In this document: one piece after another, positions 6,431 through 58,961 of the stretch
How positions within the stretch are numbered: the stretch's first letter is position 1
Layout of the letters: every line of letters starts with the position of its first letter
Virus record (IMG/VR): IMGVR_UViG_3300033067_002245
Location: 1-59,715 of that record
Reading direction: 5' to 3' (one strand)
Source: a virus
Lineage: Duplodnaviria; Caudoviricetes
Length of the DNA: 59,715 bases
Notes under the pieces: model-generated
What the model was told of the DNA's origin: nothing
Databases searched by the model: none
What the model saw: only the letters and a program-made list of their open reading frames with translations
Position numbers and translations under genes: made by a program

Positions 6431-6913
6431 TTAGTTGGTTCTATAGATGTAGTAATTTGTTCCGTTAATGCTCTGCGTTTGTTCTGAGCCATCATAAGTA
6501 GCAAGTGAATGCGCACGGCCATCAATCTGGCAATCTCTTTTAAAAGCTTCATTATCAAAATAGTTTCTGTATTCCTTTGGGCTTTTACATAACACACAAT
6601 CATCAATATATTGTTCCAGGTAATTGTCCCATATTTCTTCCGCCTCTTCATCTGTAACAATTAGACGTTGCCTATTTCCTATTTCAAAATAATTGTCGTT
6701 TTCTGTGATTGAATCAAGGTCGTTGGGTGTTAATCCATCCTCTAAGCATAGAGCTAAAACCTTTTCAGGAGAAGAAAATAACTTATCTGATATGTATTGA
6801 ATAGCTTCATCTTCTGTAAATTCAATTTTTATGTCTTCATAATCAGAATTGATTAATTCTTCAAATGGCATATTTAATAGCTTTTTTGATAATTTGATTT
6901 GTGTCGTTTTCAT
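6431..6913 (-). CDS. Acidic hypothetical early protein
   Basis: AAGGAGGCAAC leader; ends DGRAHSLATYDGSEQ...YYIYRTN. Confidence 0.8.
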   Translation of the reverse strand: MKTTQIKLSKKLLNMPFEELINSDYEDIKIEFTEDEAIQYISDKLFSSPEKVLALCLEDGLTPNDLDSITENDNYFEIGNRQRLIVTDEEAEEIWDNYLEQYIDDCVLCKSPKEYRNYFDNEAFKRDCQIDGRAHSLATYDGSEQTQSINGTNYYIYRTN

Positions 6914-12141: not shown

Positions 12142-12217
12142 TGGTACTCCTGATAGGAATCGAACCTATATCGCGCATTTCGACAAAAAGCTGCTTTATC
12201 CGTTAAGCTACAGGAGC
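12142..12217 (-). tRNA. tRNA, anticodon GTC (Asp) on an Arg-like body, CCA encoded
   Basis: 76-nt cloverleaf: GCTCCTG acceptor, GCTT-AACGGATA-AAGC D-arm, loop TTGTCGA with a U-U stem mismatch, ATAGG-TTCGATT-CCTAT, ACCA end. Confidence 0.75.
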
Positions 12218-12342: not shown

Positions 12343-12801
12343 CTAATAATATCTAATGTTCTGAGGGGATAAGTACCGAATATTAAGTTGTTTCATAAGT
12401 TTTTTTAGTTCGGAGATGTTTCGTATTGTTCCTTGAAAGAAAGTGTCTAAGGATTCATGGATACATCCGTTGTCTATTATAATCTCTTTTGAATCAGTAA
12501 AAAAATATAAAAACAAATCTGTTTTTTTTATTGTGAAATTTATTGAATTAGGGCTAGTTGATTGTTTGGTCCATCCGCAGCTTTCGATGTCTTCTCGGTC
12601 GAGGTATTTGACTCTGTAATTGTTTATTATATACTCAGGATCTTCGTCTTCGATAATATCACCAAGGAGATATTTATCAATTATTTCTTCTCCCCAAACT
12701 AATCTTTCTCCTTTATGAGTGGGATGATCATTGAAATATAGTTTTTCACACTTAAATCCAACATGAAACTCCTCAATTGCGGGGGTATAGTATTCTTTCA
12801 T
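12343..12801 (-). CDS. Hypothetical phage protein
   Basis: YYTPAIEEFHVGF...RVKYLDREDIESCGW...F.GTIRNISELKKLM. Confidence 0.75.
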   Translation of the reverse strand: MKEYYTPAIEEFHVGFKCEKLYFNDHPTHKGERLVWGEEIIDKYLLGDIIEDEDPEYIINNYRVKYLDREDIESCGWTKQSTSPNSINFTIKKTDLFLYFFTDSKEIIIDNGCIHESLDTFFQGTIRNISELKKLMKQLNIRYLSPQNIRYY

Positions 12802-13490
12802 TATGCTGCTTTGTATATAGGATTATTAATAATTTTTTTGATGGTAGAGGCGTAGAATTGTCCGCCTTCTTTTGCTTTGAATTGGTTATCGTTAAGGTAT
12901 TTTGCTATTTTGTTGGGAGCCCATCCATCATTAGATAGGGCGAATATTTTGTCAATAATTTCTTGTTCGGAGGGGTTTGGTACCATTTGTCCGTCTACTA
13001 TGTTAAATCCTAATATTCTTCTGGTATATGCTTTAAGGTTATCTTTTTTATGGTTCAGGACGGCTTTAATACGTTCTCCGGTGTTATCTCTTTCAAATTG
13101 GGCAATGGATATCAGTTGAGTAAATATAAGCTTTCCTATGGCTGTTTTGGTGGTAAATGATGCTCCTCCCATGTCGATGATGTGTAGATCGACGTTTTGT
13201 TCATTCCAGGCGGCAACGGTTATGAGGCCGTCAACGGTGTTACGGAAGAGGCGGTCAGGTTTGATGGCTATGATTGTTTTGGCTTCAGTATTTGCCAGTA
13301 GGTGATTAGCTTTTTTCCCACCGGGGCGTTTATCGAATTCGGTGAATCCGGAAACATCTTCATCGATGATTATTTCAGTGAGGATGATATTTTGGAATTT
13401 GCAATAGCTGTTGATGCGTTCGGTTTGAACGGCTATGGAGTTGGATTGGTCGTCTGTGGAGACGCGGATGTATCCGATTGCTTGTATCAT
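12801..13490 (-). CDS. Serine recombinase (resolvase catalytic domain plus short recombinase DNA-binding domain)
   Basis: YIRVST catalytic Ser, RPG, DRLFR, AQFER, C-terminal IAKYLN...F..STIKKIINNPIY. Confidence 0.9.
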   Translation of the reverse strand: MIQAIGYIRVSTDDQSNSIAVQTERINSYCKFQNIILTEIIIDEDVSGFTEFDKRPGGKKANHLLANTEAKTIIAIKPDRLFRNTVDGLITVAAWNEQNVDLHIIDMGGASFTTKTAIGKLIFTQLISIAQFERDNTGERIKAVLNHKKDNLKAYTRRILGFNIVDGQMVPNPSEQEIIDKIFALSNDGWAPNKIAKYLNDNQFKAKEGGQFYASTIKKIINNPIYKAA

Positions 13491-16388: not shown

Positions 16389-17213
16389 ATGAAAGTAGCT
16401 AAGGATACGTTTTTGATCCATGTTAAGAGCGCAAATAAGTCTACTGGTGTAGTTGGTATTTCTGGCAGCAATCTGGTTGTCGATACTGATTACAATAAGT
16501 TCAAACATTCAACTATGGTTGGGAAGATATACGCCCAATCCATCCAGGTAACATCTCAATATTTATACGACACGCCTTTAAATGTAGGTGATGATGTGGT
16601 ATTTCACCATTTCGTTTGTCAGCCTGATCATAAGATACAGGCGTTTGAGAATGTGTACCGCGCGGAATATTTCCACATATATGCTAAGATTGTTAATGAG
16701 ATGCTAGAGCCTTTAGAGGACGCTATATTTGTTGAGCCTATAAAGGAGAAGGAAGAGGATTTGTTTTGTGGTCTCATTAAGAAAAAGACTCAGGCGGGTT
16801 TGGTTCAACAAAAAGGGATTGTATTTGCCGCTTCGAAGAAAGCCAGAGCCTGGGGAATTCTTCCTGGGGATAAAGTTCACTTTACACGCAATGCTGAGTA
16901 TGAGATAAAGTTCCTTGAAAAGGATTTGTATCGTATGCGTATCAGAAATATATTGTGTGTGGAACGCAATGGTGAGCTGATTTGTTTACAAAACAAGATA
17001 TTGGTAAAGGCTATGGATTATGTTCCGGAGCCCGGTCAATTTAAAGATTCGCCCCTTCAGTTGCAGGGTGAAGTTGTTTGCGTGGGTAAGGAGGTCGCTT
17101 GCGTGGATGTAGGTGATACGATTAATTACTTTACCTCCATTGCTGGAGGAGTTGATATAAATGGAAGCAAATATTATTTTTTAGAACCAAGACACATAAA
17201 TTACATCGTATGA
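16389..17213 (+). CDS. Tandem (three-domain) GroES-like protein
   Basis: Three GroES-like units: MVGKIYA...VGDDVVFHH; PLEDAIFVEP...GIV...PGDKVHF; NKILVK...GEVVCVG...VGDTI. Confidence 0.7.
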   Translation: MKVAKDTFLIHVKSANKSTGVVGISGSNLVVDTDYNKFKHSTMVGKIYAQSIQVTSQYLYDTPLNVGDDVVFHHFVCQPDHKIQAFENVYRAEYFHIYAKIVNEMLEPLEDAIFVEPIKEKEEDLFCGLIKKKTQAGLVQQKGIVFAASKKARAWGILPGDKVHFTRNAEYEIKFLEKDLYRMRIRNILCVERNGELICLQNKILVKAMDYVPEPGQFKDSPLQLQGEVVCVGKEVACVDVGDTINYFTSIAGGVDINGSKYYFLEPRHINYIV

Positions 17214-56031: not shown

Positions 56032-56346
56032 TCAGGAGATGTGCTGAAAAGAGGCTTTAATTTGGTTCGGGGTTTCATTTTCTTGGATTTTGTTTGTTAG
56101 AAATTTCTTTGTGCGTTCGGATTGTCTTTTGTATCGGTCAAATTCTGCCCGAAGATCATTAAGCATTGTTCTAAGCCTTTGTGTTTCTATACTGTCTTTT
56201 ACAACAACCTGTATTTCTTCTTTTGAACTGTCCGTAATTTCCGGACGGTTGGCCCAAAAAAGGAAGAATACAACCAGAGCAATCATTAAAATGGCCACCA
56301 CTATTGATAGCCATTTGTAGTACTTTGTTTCTTTTTCGTCTGTCAT
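56032..56346 (-). CDS. Membrane-anchored hypothetical protein
   Basis: N-terminal TM, coiled coil. Confidence 0.6.
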   Translation of the reverse strand: MTDEKETKYYKWLSIVVAILMIALVVFFLFWANRPEITDSSKEEIQVVVKDSIETQRLRTMLNDLRAEFDRYKRQSERTKKFLTNKIQENETPNQIKASFQHIS

Positions 56347-56630
56347 TTGTATTTAAGATTAAATGTGAAAATGTTATCTTTTTGGTCAAATTCTGTATAT
56401 GCTGGATAAACGGTTAGTATCAGTTTGCCGTTTTCGCTGCCATCATCATAATAATAAAGCTCATCCCCATTTCGTTGCGTTTCACATACTACACCTTTAA
56501 AACGGTTATTGTTGAATTTATACAAGGCCGATTCGCCGCCTATATCAAAAACGCGTTCTTTTAAAATTTTCTGTTTTTCGTGATTTATTCTTTCCGCGTG
56601 AAGCTTAATAATTTCGTCAATTCTGCTGTT
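56343..56630 (-). pseudogene. Body of gene whose ATG (58551-58549) is separated by the cassette array
   Basis: Frame open from AAC at 56630 (NSRIDEIIKLHAER...) into ORF 56343..56525; joining at GTT gives a 96-aa ORF starting MNSRID. Confidence 0.8.
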
Positions 56631-56642
56631 ATAAGCAAGCTG

Positions 56643-57464
56643 CTACGTTCCTGCTTCGTTTGACAATTCCGTTTGAAAAGAATTAAAAAAAAGCCCACCG
56701 CACATTTTAAGACGTTGTTCAGCAATTTGACAATATTCTTCTGAAATTTCACTGCCAATGTATTTTCGTTTGTTGTTAATTGATGCAATAGCAGTTGTTC
56801 CACTACCCATAAAACAATCATAAACCAAATCATTTTCATTGCTCCAACTTATTATTTGGTCGGTTGCAAGTTGTTCAGGAAAAACAGCACCTTGTATAAA
56901 ATCCTTTTTGCCTCCGTATAGTGAATATTCAAAAATGTTCTGTTTTATTTTTTGCTCTTTTATAGGTTTATTCTTATGTCCTTTACTTGTTTTACTTTCA
57001 TCTGTTTGGTAAAATGTTCTATTCTTAACTATGTCTTTCCCAGCAAATACACAATCTTCCATAATAGGGTTAAATGTTTTCGGTTTCCCCTTGCTAAAAA
57101 CAAACATATATTCAAAACTTTGCTCATATCTATTATGGTTTAGTGGTATCGGATTTTTCTTTTTGTAAATCATAGTATCGTGCAAATTAAAACCAACAAT
57201 GTTTTTAAAATGAAGTGCCTGTATAAAAGATGTACAACTTTCAGTTCCATTTTTTACACTATCTGCAACAACCCAAACCAAAATTCCACCATCTTTTATA
57301 ATCCTGTATAACTCACTTGCTATTTTTTCAAACTCAAAAGTGTATCCGTTATATCTTCTAATATTGTCATACGGTGGAGATGTTACCACCAAGTCCACAA
57401 ATTTATCAGGCATTTTAGCCATTGTATCAAGGCAATTTTCGTTGTATATTTTATTTATTTCCAT
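56643..57464 (-). CDS. N4-cytosine/N6-adenine DNA methyltransferase, beta class
   Basis: VDLVVTSPPY precedes VYDCFMGSGTT. Confidence 0.92.
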   Translation of the reverse strand: MEINKIYNENCLDTMAKMPDKFVDLVVTSPPYDNIRRYNGYTFEFEKIASELYRIIKDGGILVWVVADSVKNGTESCTSFIQALHFKNIVGFNLHDTMIYKKKNPIPLNHNRYEQSFEYMFVFSKGKPKTFNPIMEDCVFAGKDIVKNRTFYQTDESKTSKGHKNKPIKEQKIKQNIFEYSLYGGKKDFIQGAVFPEQLATDQIISWSNENDLVYDCFMGSGTTAIASINNKRKYIGSEISEEYCQIAEQRLKMCGGLFFNSFQTELSNEAGT

Positions 57465-57533
57465 CCCTTCCTTTTTTTAATTCTTTTTTTAGTGCTTCGT
57501 ATTTAGCTTTTCGTTTAATTAACCGCAGCCAGC

Positions 57534-57664
57534 TTATAACACGTGTTTTGTGCAATAGGGACTGATGTTGTTGATTGAGCTTTACTGCTACTATTTAGCT
57601 TCGGTGGTAGGTTGAAAGTTCTGTTTCCAAAATCCCTACTGCACAAAGCACCTTAACGTTACCA
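57534..57664 (+). repeat. attC-like site 1
   Basis: TTATAAC-A-CGTGTTTTGTGCAATAGGGA...TCCCTACTGCACAAAGCACC-TTAAC-GTTACCA. Confidence 0.75.
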
Positions 57665-57701
57665 GCAATGCTACGTTCACGTTCCATATTTAACTTTCGG
57701 T

Positions 57702-58388
57702 TCAAATGTTTTTAAAAATGCCCCCACCGCACAAATAATATTCACCAATGTATTTTGTATAAGCTGGCGGTATCGCTTCTTTCAGCCCCTTGAAATCCAT
57801 CCAGTCAATTCCGTAAGCAAGCGGGGCGTTCTTTACGGTCTTTGGTTGCATCCCAAGTTTAAAGCGCTTTTCTCTGCTTGCCTTACTCGCTGTTGTTACA
57901 AGTAACGGCAGTTCTGTATGGTCGCATTTGCAAGGCGCAACCAAAGGGAATGATGTTTCAAAGAACCTGTGCCTTTGTGTTCGCAAATTGAACATTGAAC
58001 CGCAAAGCATTGTTGGATTTTTAAGTTCATTTTTTGCCCCTGCCACATTCTCTATGCAATACGGCTTTCCTATTTCATTCAGCAATTCACGCAACACATC
58101 TATCAACTTTTCATATTTACCCTTATGTTCCTTTGGCGTTAAATTGCTATATCCTTGACAGGGCGGTGATGCGTGAATGAAATCGTATTCCTTGCCGTGT
58201 TCTTTCAGGTAAATAATTGCATCGCTCAAAATGAACTTAAAAGGATATTTCGGTTGCGGTTCAATGTCAATTCCCGTTACATCAAATCCCGCTTGCTTAT
58301 AGCCCATTCCTGCACCGCCAGCGCAACAAAATAAATCTAATAATTTCCCCTCGCTTCGCATTTTTAAAAACATTTGTTTCGTTTCCAT
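57702..58388 (-). CDS. C5-cytosine DNA methyltransferase
   Basis: LLDLFCCAGG (I), ASPPCQ (IV), IENV (VI), QRHR (VIII), EAIPP (X); start uncertain (ATG 58388 or a later ATG). Confidence 0.88.
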   Translation of the reverse strand: METKQMFLKMRSEGKLLDLFCCAGGAGMGYKQAGFDVTGIDIEPQPKYPFKFILSDAIIYLKEHGKEYDFIHASPPCQGYSNLTPKEHKGKYEKLIDVLRELLNEIGKPYCIENVAGAKNELKNPTMLCGSMFNLRTQRHRFFETSFPLVAPCKCDHTELPLLVTTASKASREKRFKLGMQPKTVKNAPLAYGIDWMDFKGLKEAIPPAYTKYIGEYYLCGGGIFKNI

Positions 58389-58419
58389 ATTGAACTTTTC
58401 ACTTAATAATCCGCACTGC

Positions 58420-58548
58420 TGGTAACAGCGGTTTTGCAATAGTGGGGTTTTAGTGGTTTATTAATCATTTGTACTTCTATTTAAGTTTAGTGGTGGGCTG
58501 AAAATTTAGGCTTCGATTTTCCCCACCATCGCAAAGCCGCAAAACGTT
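58420..58548 (+). repeat. attC-like site 2
   Basis: TGGTAAC-A-GCGGTTTTGCAATAGTGGGG...CCCCACCATCGCAAAGCCGC-AAAAC-GTT. Confidence 0.75.
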
Positions 58549-58553
58549 CATTT

Positions 58554-58961
58554 TTAATTAAGTGTTAAGTAAATAGCTGTTAACCATAAAGCGATTCCGA
58601 TAATAAATAAAACTAGCCTCCATTCGTACGGAATCTCAATTTTTGCTGTGGATGTAGTCGAGTTGCTTGTAAATCCTTTCGGGTATGTTCCGGGCCTTAA
58701 TTTCTCCCTTCTTATGTAGTAAAAACCATCGTGAATAAATGGAAACGTAAAGGCTAAACCAAGCAGCATAAGTGGCGAAAAACCGAGCAGTAAAACAATT
58801 ATCGCTACAGTTGATCTTTGAATTAAAAACAGGCCATGCAGGTTTTTCTTCTTTTCAGAAATTTTACTTTCATAATGGTAGTGGTACCCTTCTCTATCAC
58901 CTTCTAATCCTGAATACAACCAAAGAAGGAGTGAAACTAAAATAAAAATAAATAGTGTCAT
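58554..58961 (-). CDS. Membrane protein
   Basis: Several hydrophobic helices; FIHDGFYY. Confidence 0.7.
   Translation of the reverse strand: MTLFIFILVSLLLWLYSGLEGDREGYHYHYESKISEKKKNLHGLFLIQRSTVAIIVLLLGFSPLMLLGLAFTFPFIHDGFYYIRREKLRPGTYPKGFTSNSTTSTAKIEIPYEWRLVLFIIGIALWLTAIYLTLN

Follow-up and report, generated by a model that had tools for sequence, protein, structure and literature searches.

An attC-like two-cassette insert in the second codon of an early phage gene, and a candidate integron-like system of Bacteroidota

How does an early phage gene come to be parted from its own start codon by two DNA methyltransferase genes, and what could have placed them there? The question is raised by IMG/VR virus record IMGVR_UViG_3300033067_002245 (Duplodnaviria; Caudoviricetes), which we analysed over its entire length of 59,715 nucleotides (nt; completeness estimate 89%) and refer to as the window. 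At its right end, a minus-strand block of early genes is broken by an insert of 1918 nt that consists of two tandem cassettes. An earlier note on this DNA had described the insert as an attC-like array of two cassettes, set at a GTT in codon 2 of a 96-amino-acid (aa) gene and decapitating it, and on direct reading its coordinates hold. As set out below, we consider it likely that the cassettes arrived by integron-type, hairpin-directed, site-specific insertion at this GTT, catalysed in trans.

The interrupted gene and the states of its site

The gene upstream of the insert, an open reading frame (ORF) for a 135-aa membrane protein (58554-58961, minus strand), ends in a TAA at 58554-58556. Two nucleotides past this stop stands the orphaned ATG of the interrupted gene (58549-58551, minus strand, read as CAT on the plus strand), which opens just 23 codons that lead into a structured non-coding stretch. 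The body of the gene, from codon 2 to the stop, lies on the minus strand at 56343-56630; reading AAC AGC AGA ATT... from 56630 downwards to the stop at 56343, it has no usable in-frame ATG in the window, and the gene caller places its start at a TTG at 56525, giving a 60-aa product (P0005). GTT is present at both junctions, on the plus strand at 56628-56630 (left) and 58546-58548 (right), so the crossover may fall anywhere within the triplet. When 56631-58548 (1918 nt) was deleted in silico, a 96-aa ORF starting MNSRIDEIIKLHAER was rebuilt.

We searched the decapitated product against 5.8 billion proteins and obtained 12 candidates, 2 of them at E <= 0.01, and two clusters with 9 members. Two 96-aa proteins, P0003 and P0004, are identical to the rebuilt ORF at 95 of 96 positions, and two others of the same length, P0002 and P0009, at 69 of 96 (72%). 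All four begin MNSRIDEI, and none starts at the position of the TTG at 56525. The empty site proposed from the sequence alone is therefore present in relatives, and the insertion point is the GTT encoding Asn-2, inside the second codon of the gene. Searches for relatives of the interrupted protein, from which near-identical records may have been excluded, returned 16 pattern matches in viral contigs and 253 in metagenome contigs, with none confirmed in either set.

Further proteins carry foreign leaders fused at the same Asn codon. P0001 starts MERERSIAG and continues NSRIDE..., and its nine leader codons correspond to minus-strand 57687-57661, the left end of cassette B; its source genome therefore has cassette B directly abutting the gene, that is, the window minus cassette A. 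Two more foreign leaders occur in P0006 (...KQIAY followed by NSRIDE) and in P0007 and P0008 (MECSITA followed by NSRIDE). Altogether the site is found in five states among genomes at least 90% identical in the 96-aa protein (a 90% cluster of 7 members). Near-identical variants with different cassette ends fused at one codon mark the site, as we read these sequences, as a polymorphic insertion hot spot. The earlier note had further suggested that excision could act as a switch that restores the gene. Filled, empty and otherwise-filled states do coexist in related genomes, but reversible switching within a lineage is not supported.

Contigs of other sequencing runs bear on the same junctions. 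Of the runs listed, 18 contain parts of the window; they stem from 9 studies, which sampled waste water, fresh water, rivers and activated sludge. We aligned the contigs (not the raw reads) of four runs to the window. They break exactly at 56628, 57657/57658 and 58548, diverging just before the left junction and just after the right one, and the foreign sequence at their loose ends looks like the terminal part of a different hairpin (...CCAAGCCCCCAAAC before 56628) or like the beginning of a different cassette. Three contig joints (56651>57521, 56699>57461 and 57674>58411) keep the cassette ends and replace the cargo. Summed depth over 56572-56705 came to 439, 43, 1312 and 402 in the four runs, with flanks at about 10-90, and over 57376-57509 to 233, 75, 711 and 411; these jumps over the cassette ends indicate that the ends are multi-copy in these communities. 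One 1055-nt contig of run X1 matches exactly 57657-58548, alone, in a different context. Another contig of that run, of 1219 nt, joins 56348 to 58554 via 205 other letters and replaces the whole 96-aa gene together with the insert.

That the short-read contigs of four runs fragment at cassette ends is also compatible with an assembly chimera, in which the insert was mis-joined to the phage contig at a repeat. We regard this as extremely unlikely: run X15 contains 92% of the window's sampled words, the left junction at 56628 is bridged by contigs that link the gene body with cassette A (records 9 and 27), 58548 is likewise bridged (record 12), and in the gene calls of several independent contigs foreign N-termini are fused at the same codon.

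Both cassettes share one layout. Read on the plus (top) strand, a unit opens with GTTA and a cassette-specific left end, followed by a reversed ORF and by the complement of the left end, which closes in TAAC; then come 1-2 nt, an imperfect stem of about 20 base pairs (bp) with a 70-nt loop, and 5-6 nt ending in AAC, after which the next unit's GTT begins. Cassette A (56628-57657, plus strand) starts with GTTATAAGCAAGCTGC (56628-56643, plus strand) and carries, reversed, the N6/N4-type DNA methyltransferase 1 (56643-57464, minus strand; 273 aa; Pfam N6_N4_Mtase, E 2.9e-40). Its R''-like right end, GCAGCCAGCTTATAAC (57525-57540, plus strand), is followed by AC and then by the stem of the attC-like site S2 (57531-57667, plus strand; arms 57543-57561 and 57633-57651, 71-nt loop), and the unit closes with CTTAAC. 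Cassette B (57658-58545, plus strand) starts with GTTACCAGC (57658-57666, plus strand) and carries the reversed C5-type DNA methyltransferase 2 (57702-58388, minus strand), whose likely ATG lies at 58388-58386, the longest ORF (245 aa) running from a TTG at 58439; it gives a partial match to Pfam DNA_methylase (C5; E 5.2e-7) and contains PCQ and ENV motifs. The right end of this cassette, GCTGGTAAC (58418-58426, plus strand), is followed by A and then by the stem of the attC-like site S1 (58417-58555, plus strand; arms 58428-58447 and 58521-58540, 73-nt loop). After the closing AAAAC of cassette B, GTTCAT marks the resumption of the phage gene. The cargo is thus two DNA methyltransferases, as the earlier note had it, and its observation that each left core is complementary to its own right core is borne out at 14 of 16 nt in cassette A and 9 of 9 nt in cassette B.

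The left end of cassette B (57658-57687, minus strand) also holds an outward-facing ATG (57687-57685), which is fused in frame to NSRIDE in P0001 and may serve as a start codon there; GAAAGTTAAAT precedes it and resembles the region before the start of methyltransferase 2 itself. The TAG stop of methyltransferase 1 is in frame with the interrupted gene. Stop-codon recoding from this TAG was considered as a candidate and dropped, the only tRNA being a tRNA-Asp and the intact homologues starting at ATG.

Inside their ends, both cassettes contain a perfect inverted repeat, of 16 nt in cassette A (56676-56691 with 57472-57487) and 19 nt in cassette B (57703-57721 with 58358-58376). Inner inverted repeats of 12 nt or more are present in 10 of 55 viral cassettes, compared with none of the 55 controls with mismatched partners and none of the 76 bacterial cassettes. 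They flank the methyltransferase ORFs and may record an inversion of the ORF, or else an exchange of cargo inside a conserved chassis.

A hairpin family in Bacteroidota and their phages

The two sites of the window belong to a larger family. We aligned 75 elements, of which 28 are bacterial, 28 viral and the other 19 drawn from the window and cultured phages; the AAC and GTT columns are invariant in all of them (75/75). Along the 20-bp stem 80% of cells are paired, compared with 59% in shuffled alignments and 35-50% in slid controls. Changes on both sides occur at 18 of the 20 stem pairs, and the covariation score of the stem (0.456, compared with 0.135 in shuffles) was reached in 0 of 500 shuffles. 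Two non-Watson-Crick positions are conserved as well, an A.C mismatch (74/75) and a T.G wobble (70/75). The hairpin measures about 120 nt and the sites about 125-138 nt overall. At E <= 1, no Rfam family matched the hairpin. A covariance model built from the family, R1, found exactly two sites in the 59.7-kb window, S1 (114.4 bits, E 6.5e-22) and S2 (100.4 bits, E 6.9e-19). Across the window plus six cultured-phage loci, 34 distinct AAC|GTT contexts were found, 24 of them with a strong stem preceded by ...TAAC; as a caveat, the hexamer AACGTT itself is not enriched over the whole window (17 observed, 19.8 expected).

Complementarity between the right end of a cassette and its own left end, which we call the own-end rule, extends to the family: of 111 viral elements 103 obey it, as do 77 of the 119 bacterial ones, compared with 5 and 2 when the ends were scrambled. 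In integron cassettes, the inverse core matches the start of its own unit owing to a circular intermediate that is cut at G|TT.

Subterminal hairpins, insertion beside a short fixed motif and the lack of any target duplication beyond the shared triplet are features that non-autonomous, hairpin-dependent transposons would also display, whether IS200/IS605-like elements or miniature inverted-repeat transposable elements, moved by a single-strand transposase. Each unit here has only one hairpin, at one end, and not the hairpins at both ends that IS200/IS605 elements call for; the inverted repeats at the ends differ from cassette to cassette and are anchored on GTT/AAC, the units stand in tandem head-to-tail arrays, no Rfam family was matched, and the linked gene, described below, encodes a tyrosine recombinase and not a TnpA/HUH enzyme. 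Such transposons are, in our view, a very unlikely source of the insert.

The family is widely distributed. A strict pattern with 25 specified bases, for which a rough estimate gives about 0.03 matches expected by chance in the genome contigs, matched at least 120 stretches in genome contigs and at least 119 in IMG/VR. Among the matches listed (80 genome stretches), almost all fall in Flavobacteriales, Sphingobacteriales, Chitinophagales, Cytophagales and other Bacteroidota. In an even sample of 151 Bacteroidota genomes, 69 contain R1 matches, often in about 20 copies or more. Among cultured phages, blastn with S2 and its flanks found 37 Flavobacterium phage records and no others, the matches extending over 61 nt, and the same search with S1 and its flanks gave no match. 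In these 37 records, from Muminvirus and relatives, the ends of cassette A recur around a different methyltransferase. Between the window and Muminvirus, the cassette ends and stems are 88-91% identical over 43-61 nt (56628-56675 and 57488-57540 in the window; 1648-1690 and 2301-2359 in our locus L002). Muminvirus filifjonk9-1 and mumin6-1 are 100% identical over 1655 nt up to a junction, where filifjonk9-1 has, at a GTT, one extra 412-nt cassette of the same anatomy that is absent in mumin6-1; from this alignment we take the extra cassette to be a natural insertion. In Baltic Flavobacterium phages, methyltransferase differences have been correlated with plating efficiency and host range (PMC7077304); the words 'cassette' and 'hairpin' do not occur in that paper.

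Several features would also suit regulatory or RNA-processing hairpins between early genes, shuffled as modules by homologous recombination at the repeats with no dedicated recombinase, in the manner of the promoter stem-loop cassettes of T4-type phages. The strong conservation of stems and ends around unrelated cargo is one, as are the depth spikes over multi-copy ends, the contig joints that retain ends and exchange cargo, and the equal folding of both strands. The hairpin loops, moreover, contain A/T-rich motifs just 5' of ORF starts, and some ORFs start within the loop. Homologous exchange leaves three things unexplained, namely the complementarity of each cassette's own ends, insertion into a coding GTT without flanking homology, and the linkage of arrays to a tyrosine recombinase, and we judge it quite unlikely as the whole explanation; site-specific insertion and homologous exchange may operate together. 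In phage cassettes whose ORF begins in the loop, one stem arm and the inverse core are translated within the N-terminus of the methyltransferase (locus L001, 4295-4434 and 3647-4366).

Within the family, bacterial and viral cassettes form two pools that differ in polarity and cargo. In bacterial cassettes, delimited by the own-end rule, the longest ORF lies forward on the top strand in 73 of 77, whereas 94 of 103 viral cassettes have it reversed, on the bottom strand; the viral figure becomes 96 of 99 if ORFs must reach 50 aa and starts in the loop are allowed. The 98 distinct proteins of the viral pool include 28 with an N6_N4_Mtase match, 2 C5 DNA_methylase, 2 MT-A70 and 1 D12 methylase, the remainder being mostly small and unnamed. 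The 77 bacterial proteins include 2 with N6_N4_Mtase, and the rest are spread across 75 families, among them AraC regulators, dehydrogenases, acetyltransferases, catalase and restriction enzymes. With both ORFs reversed and methyltransferases as cargo, the cassettes of the window are typical of the viral pool. The earlier note had supposed that the phage captured host-type cassettes. The hairpin type is indeed shared with hosts, and the stem of S1 is nearly identical to those of a Chryseobacterium array, but polarity and cargo differ between the pools, so capture from a host array is not the simplest source; judged by these sequence features, a phage cassette pool is the more likely one.

Recombinases beside the arrays

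An enzyme that could move such cassettes is encoded beside some of the arrays. Contig 3 of Chryseobacterium sp. FH1 has 11 R1 matches on one strand between 6.6 and 16.0 kb, and a gene for a 371-aa tyrosine recombinase starts at 16723 on the opposite strand, divergent from the array and about 0.7 kb from it. The FH1 cassettes follow the own-end rule (GTTAGCCGTA/TACGGCTAAC and GTTATCTGTA/TACAGATAAC), and their stems are nearly identical to that of S1. The recombinase contains Pfam domains PF00589 and PF13495 (N-terminal SAM-like); its best NCBIfam matches, to XerA/integron integrase and to integron integrase, fall below the cut-offs, and the closest solved structures are XerA (4a8e, 5hxy), then VchIntIA. 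Bacterial versions of the protein carry an extra N-terminal extension of about 100-300 residues.

The association recurs across the phylum. The best integron-integrase-like match lay within 3.5 kb of elements in four of five genomes examined, and a homologue of the recombinase was found in 12 of 120 genome loci of 8 kb among the matches listed. In the phylum sample, 68 of 201 genomes have the recombinase at E <= 1e-50, a threshold that may include Xer paralogues. Scored by genome, 38 have both recombinase and elements, 11 the recombinase only, 31 the elements only and 71 neither (odds ratio 7.9, Fisher p 8e-8, a statistic that ignores relatedness). In 13 more genomes the recombinase and the elements lie on one contig within about 11 kb, co-oriented in 11 and divergent in 2. 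For the recombinase of genome G004, linkage consists of three weaker R1 matches of about 40 bits. An adjacency between this recombinase and the Cyclobacteriaceae locus L035 was considered and dropped, only the roughly 1-kb end repeat of L035 matching there. That repeat occurs at both ends of L035 (1-900 and 6500-8000) and again near the G004 recombinase, and it is probably an insertion sequence flanking the element-bearing segment.

Viral contigs carry the association too. A homologue of the catalytic core is present in 7 of 119 viral loci among the matches listed (L224, L164, L146, L151, L185, L195 and L200), and in all seven the array starts 0.6-1.7 kb from the 5' end of the recombinase gene, on the opposite strand, which is the classical integron layout. 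On the evidence of this gene order, we regard the seven as complete integron-like platforms on putative phages. Arrays beside a recombinase of their own reach up to 6 hairpin sites (L224, 1357-6426; L164, 7675-11398). As to orientation, 13 of the 17 bacterial cases seen have the recombinase gene upstream of the array and pointing the same way (for example G128:C1 120542-147606, G017:C12 and G082:C56), and 4 of 17 have it divergent, as do 7 of 7 viral loci. The earlier note's statement that no integrase is in the window stands.

The enzyme that the note had in mind, an integron integrase, fits less well. If the units were plain integron cassettes that bear true attC sites and are mobilised by the host's canonical IntI, with its extra domain, the phage GTT would be a secondary site of the attG type. 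The outline of the sites agrees with attC in the AAC/GTT boxes, the complementarity to the own left end, the imperfect stem, the variable loop and the length of about 125-138 nt. In published work, IntI1 recombined one site of a cassette cluster from a Flavobacteriaceae phage (PMC9892861) and also acts away from att sites, placing cassettes at G-W-T motifs across the genome (bioRxiv 10.1101/2022.09.11.507474). Against this stand the absence of any match above the TIGR02249 cut-off in the five element-bearing genomes tested, a physically linked recombinase without the IntI insertion, and the report, in the IntegronFinder 2.0 paper, of only one complete integron in Bacteroidetes proper (Salinibacter), compared with elements in 69 of 151 genomes. 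We consider canonical integron activity unlikely.

Several observations also weigh against the reading we prefer, integron-type insertion catalysed in trans. The window contains no homologue of the array-linked recombinase, no PF00589 match and no tyrosine recombinase of any type; three cultured phage records that were checked likewise contain no tyrosine recombinase, and 31 of the 69 element-bearing genomes have no homologue at E <= 1e-50. The linked recombinase scores 181-209 bits against TIGR02249 (cut-off 265) and 198-208 against NF040815 (cut-off 220), and in four genomes it skips TIGR02249 positions 181-241 (about 60), which we take to be the IntI-specific domain, having 17-18 residues instead. 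Predicted folding of the single-stranded DNA is modestly better than in shuffles (z -2.2 to -2.5), with about equal energies on the two strands and hence no strand preference. The stems pair without bulged extrahelical bases and have spacers of 1-2 nt on one side and 5-6 nt on the other, which differs from classical attC. No empty-site joint is found among 15 of the 20 joints listed for the four runs, although these are contig data and silent on absence. R1 gave no match to the sites of Polaribacter phage P12002L, and the result with IntI1 is not directly transferable. Finally, the window's site lacks the C-R-G-M at +6 to +9 of IntI1 attG hotspots and has only the G-W-T.

Taken together, own-end complementarity, stem covariation, the empty and alternatively filled states of the site and the arrays' linkage to a recombinase argue for integron-type insertion at the GTT. 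A broader proposal, which we advance with slightly less than even confidence, is that the window exemplifies an integron-like system that extends across the phylum Bacteroidota and is so far undescribed, with a uniform recombination site in the form of a hairpin of about 125 nt, a XerA/IntI-like recombinase that lacks the IntI insertion and two cassette pools of opposite polarity. Just as tentatively, chromosomal arrays would hold forward, diverse accessory genes, and reversed, methyltransferase-rich cassettes would circulate among phages. It is further conceivable, on a similarly near-even footing, that some phages carry their own recombinase, that phage genes are recurrent insertion sites and that some cassette ends provide a new start codon.

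A proposed mechanism and its place among known systems

We propose that a circular cassette, folded as a single strand at its hairpin site, would recombine at G|TT with the GTT encoding Asn-2 of the 96-aa early gene. The enzyme would be supplied in trans by the host, a prophage or a co-infecting phage, and the best candidate is the XerA/IntI-like tyrosine recombinase family found beside the same hairpins in Bacteroidota and on some viral contigs, which may catalyse the reaction. Further cassettes may enter on the gene-body side or be lost, which could give rise to the observed states of the site. The N6/N4-type and C5-type methyltransferases would shield the phage DNA from host restriction. 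The cost of this arrangement would be a lost start codon and a silent gene, which could be re-capped by the outward ATG when cassette B is adjacent.

Two other regions of the window may be mentioned here. An ArdA-like antirestriction protein (6431-6913, minus strand; Pfam PF07275, E 2.3e-6) is a second anti-restriction function. Farther along lies a gene for a 229-aa serine recombinase (Resolvase and Recombinase domains), with a 152-aa ORF and a tRNA-Asp gene immediately after it (12343-13490, minus strand, and 12142-12217). This region may be a split, two-part large serine integrase with its attachment region, and, if so, would point to a temperate phage.

Integrons are seen chiefly as devices of proteobacteria. 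The IntegronFinder 2.0 paper reports almost no integrons in Bacteroidetes. If these arrays function as their structure suggests, nearly half of the sampled Bacteroidota genomes (69/151) and many phages share a form of cassette exchange that standard tools may miss, which would change how accessory-gene flow is read in this abundant phylum. For phage biology, it would offer a concrete mechanism for the fast turnover of anti-restriction methyltransferases. The filled, half-filled, otherwise-filled and empty states of this locus amount to a natural experiment, and the contrast in gene polarity between host and phage cassettes can be tested directly. Searches of the open-access literature without supplements turned up no account of the long-hairpin family or of its spread among Bacteroidota, nor of the non-IntI recombinase beside it, the polarity split or an insertion in a phage gene with a documented empty site; phage cassette clusters with methyltransferases and insertion at G-W-T sites are already published.

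The closest published counterpart is the phage-borne cluster of attC sites lacking an integron-integrase (CALIN). Qi 2023 (PMC9892861) described an attC cluster with two methyltransferases in Polaribacter phage P12002L, one site of which was the one recombined by IntI1; methyltransferase cargo in a Flavobacteriaceae phage is therefore not new. The word 'Flavobacterium' does not occur in the main text of that paper, and its supplementary tables may list such phages. The P12002L sequence has the same cassette anatomy as the window, with a short hairpin of about 35 nt. If S1 and S2 are counted as attC, the window itself would class as a CALIN, its two sites being separated by 0.9 kb and its 59.7 kb encoding no integrase. 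Like the cassettes of integrons and phage CALIN (PMC9892861), those of the window are tandem, promoter-poor units bounded by an imperfect AAC...GTT hairpin, with the G|TT junction (stated there as G|TTRRRY), a 5' end complementary to the own inverse core and sites within the length range of attC. Unlike attC, the family is tight at 125-138 nt, with ungapped 20-bp stems, conserved A.C and T.G positions and asymmetric spacers. Unlike classical cassettes, those of the window have their ORFs on the opposite strand and lie inside a coding sequence whose empty site is known, and, unlike in a complete integron, no intI with the IntI-specific insertion stands beside the array.

Small gene modules that are bounded by conserved sites, either structured or of the Xer type, and that reshuffle accessory genes in hyperplastic regions are also familiar from the mobile promoter stem-loop cassettes of T4-type phages and from the pdif modules of Acinetobacter plasmids, the latter being 28-bp double-stranded Xer sites in alternating orientation. 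To our knowledge, neither has own-end complementarity or a single hairpin per unit.

The array-linked recombinase, for its part, resembles IntI and XerA (TIGR02249, NF040815; PDB 2a3v, 4a8e, 5hxy) in its PF00589 and PF13495 domains and in its best family and structure matches, and departs from them in scoring below both cut-offs, in having about 18 residues in place of positions 181-241 and in its N-terminal extension. Its target, lastly, is like the attG sites of IntI1 (bioRxiv 10.1101/2022.09.11.507474) in being a short G-W-T within an ordinary gene from which excision is possible. Unlike attG, the site of the window is reused by different cassettes, which makes it more like attI, and the enzyme that acts there is probably not IntI1-3.

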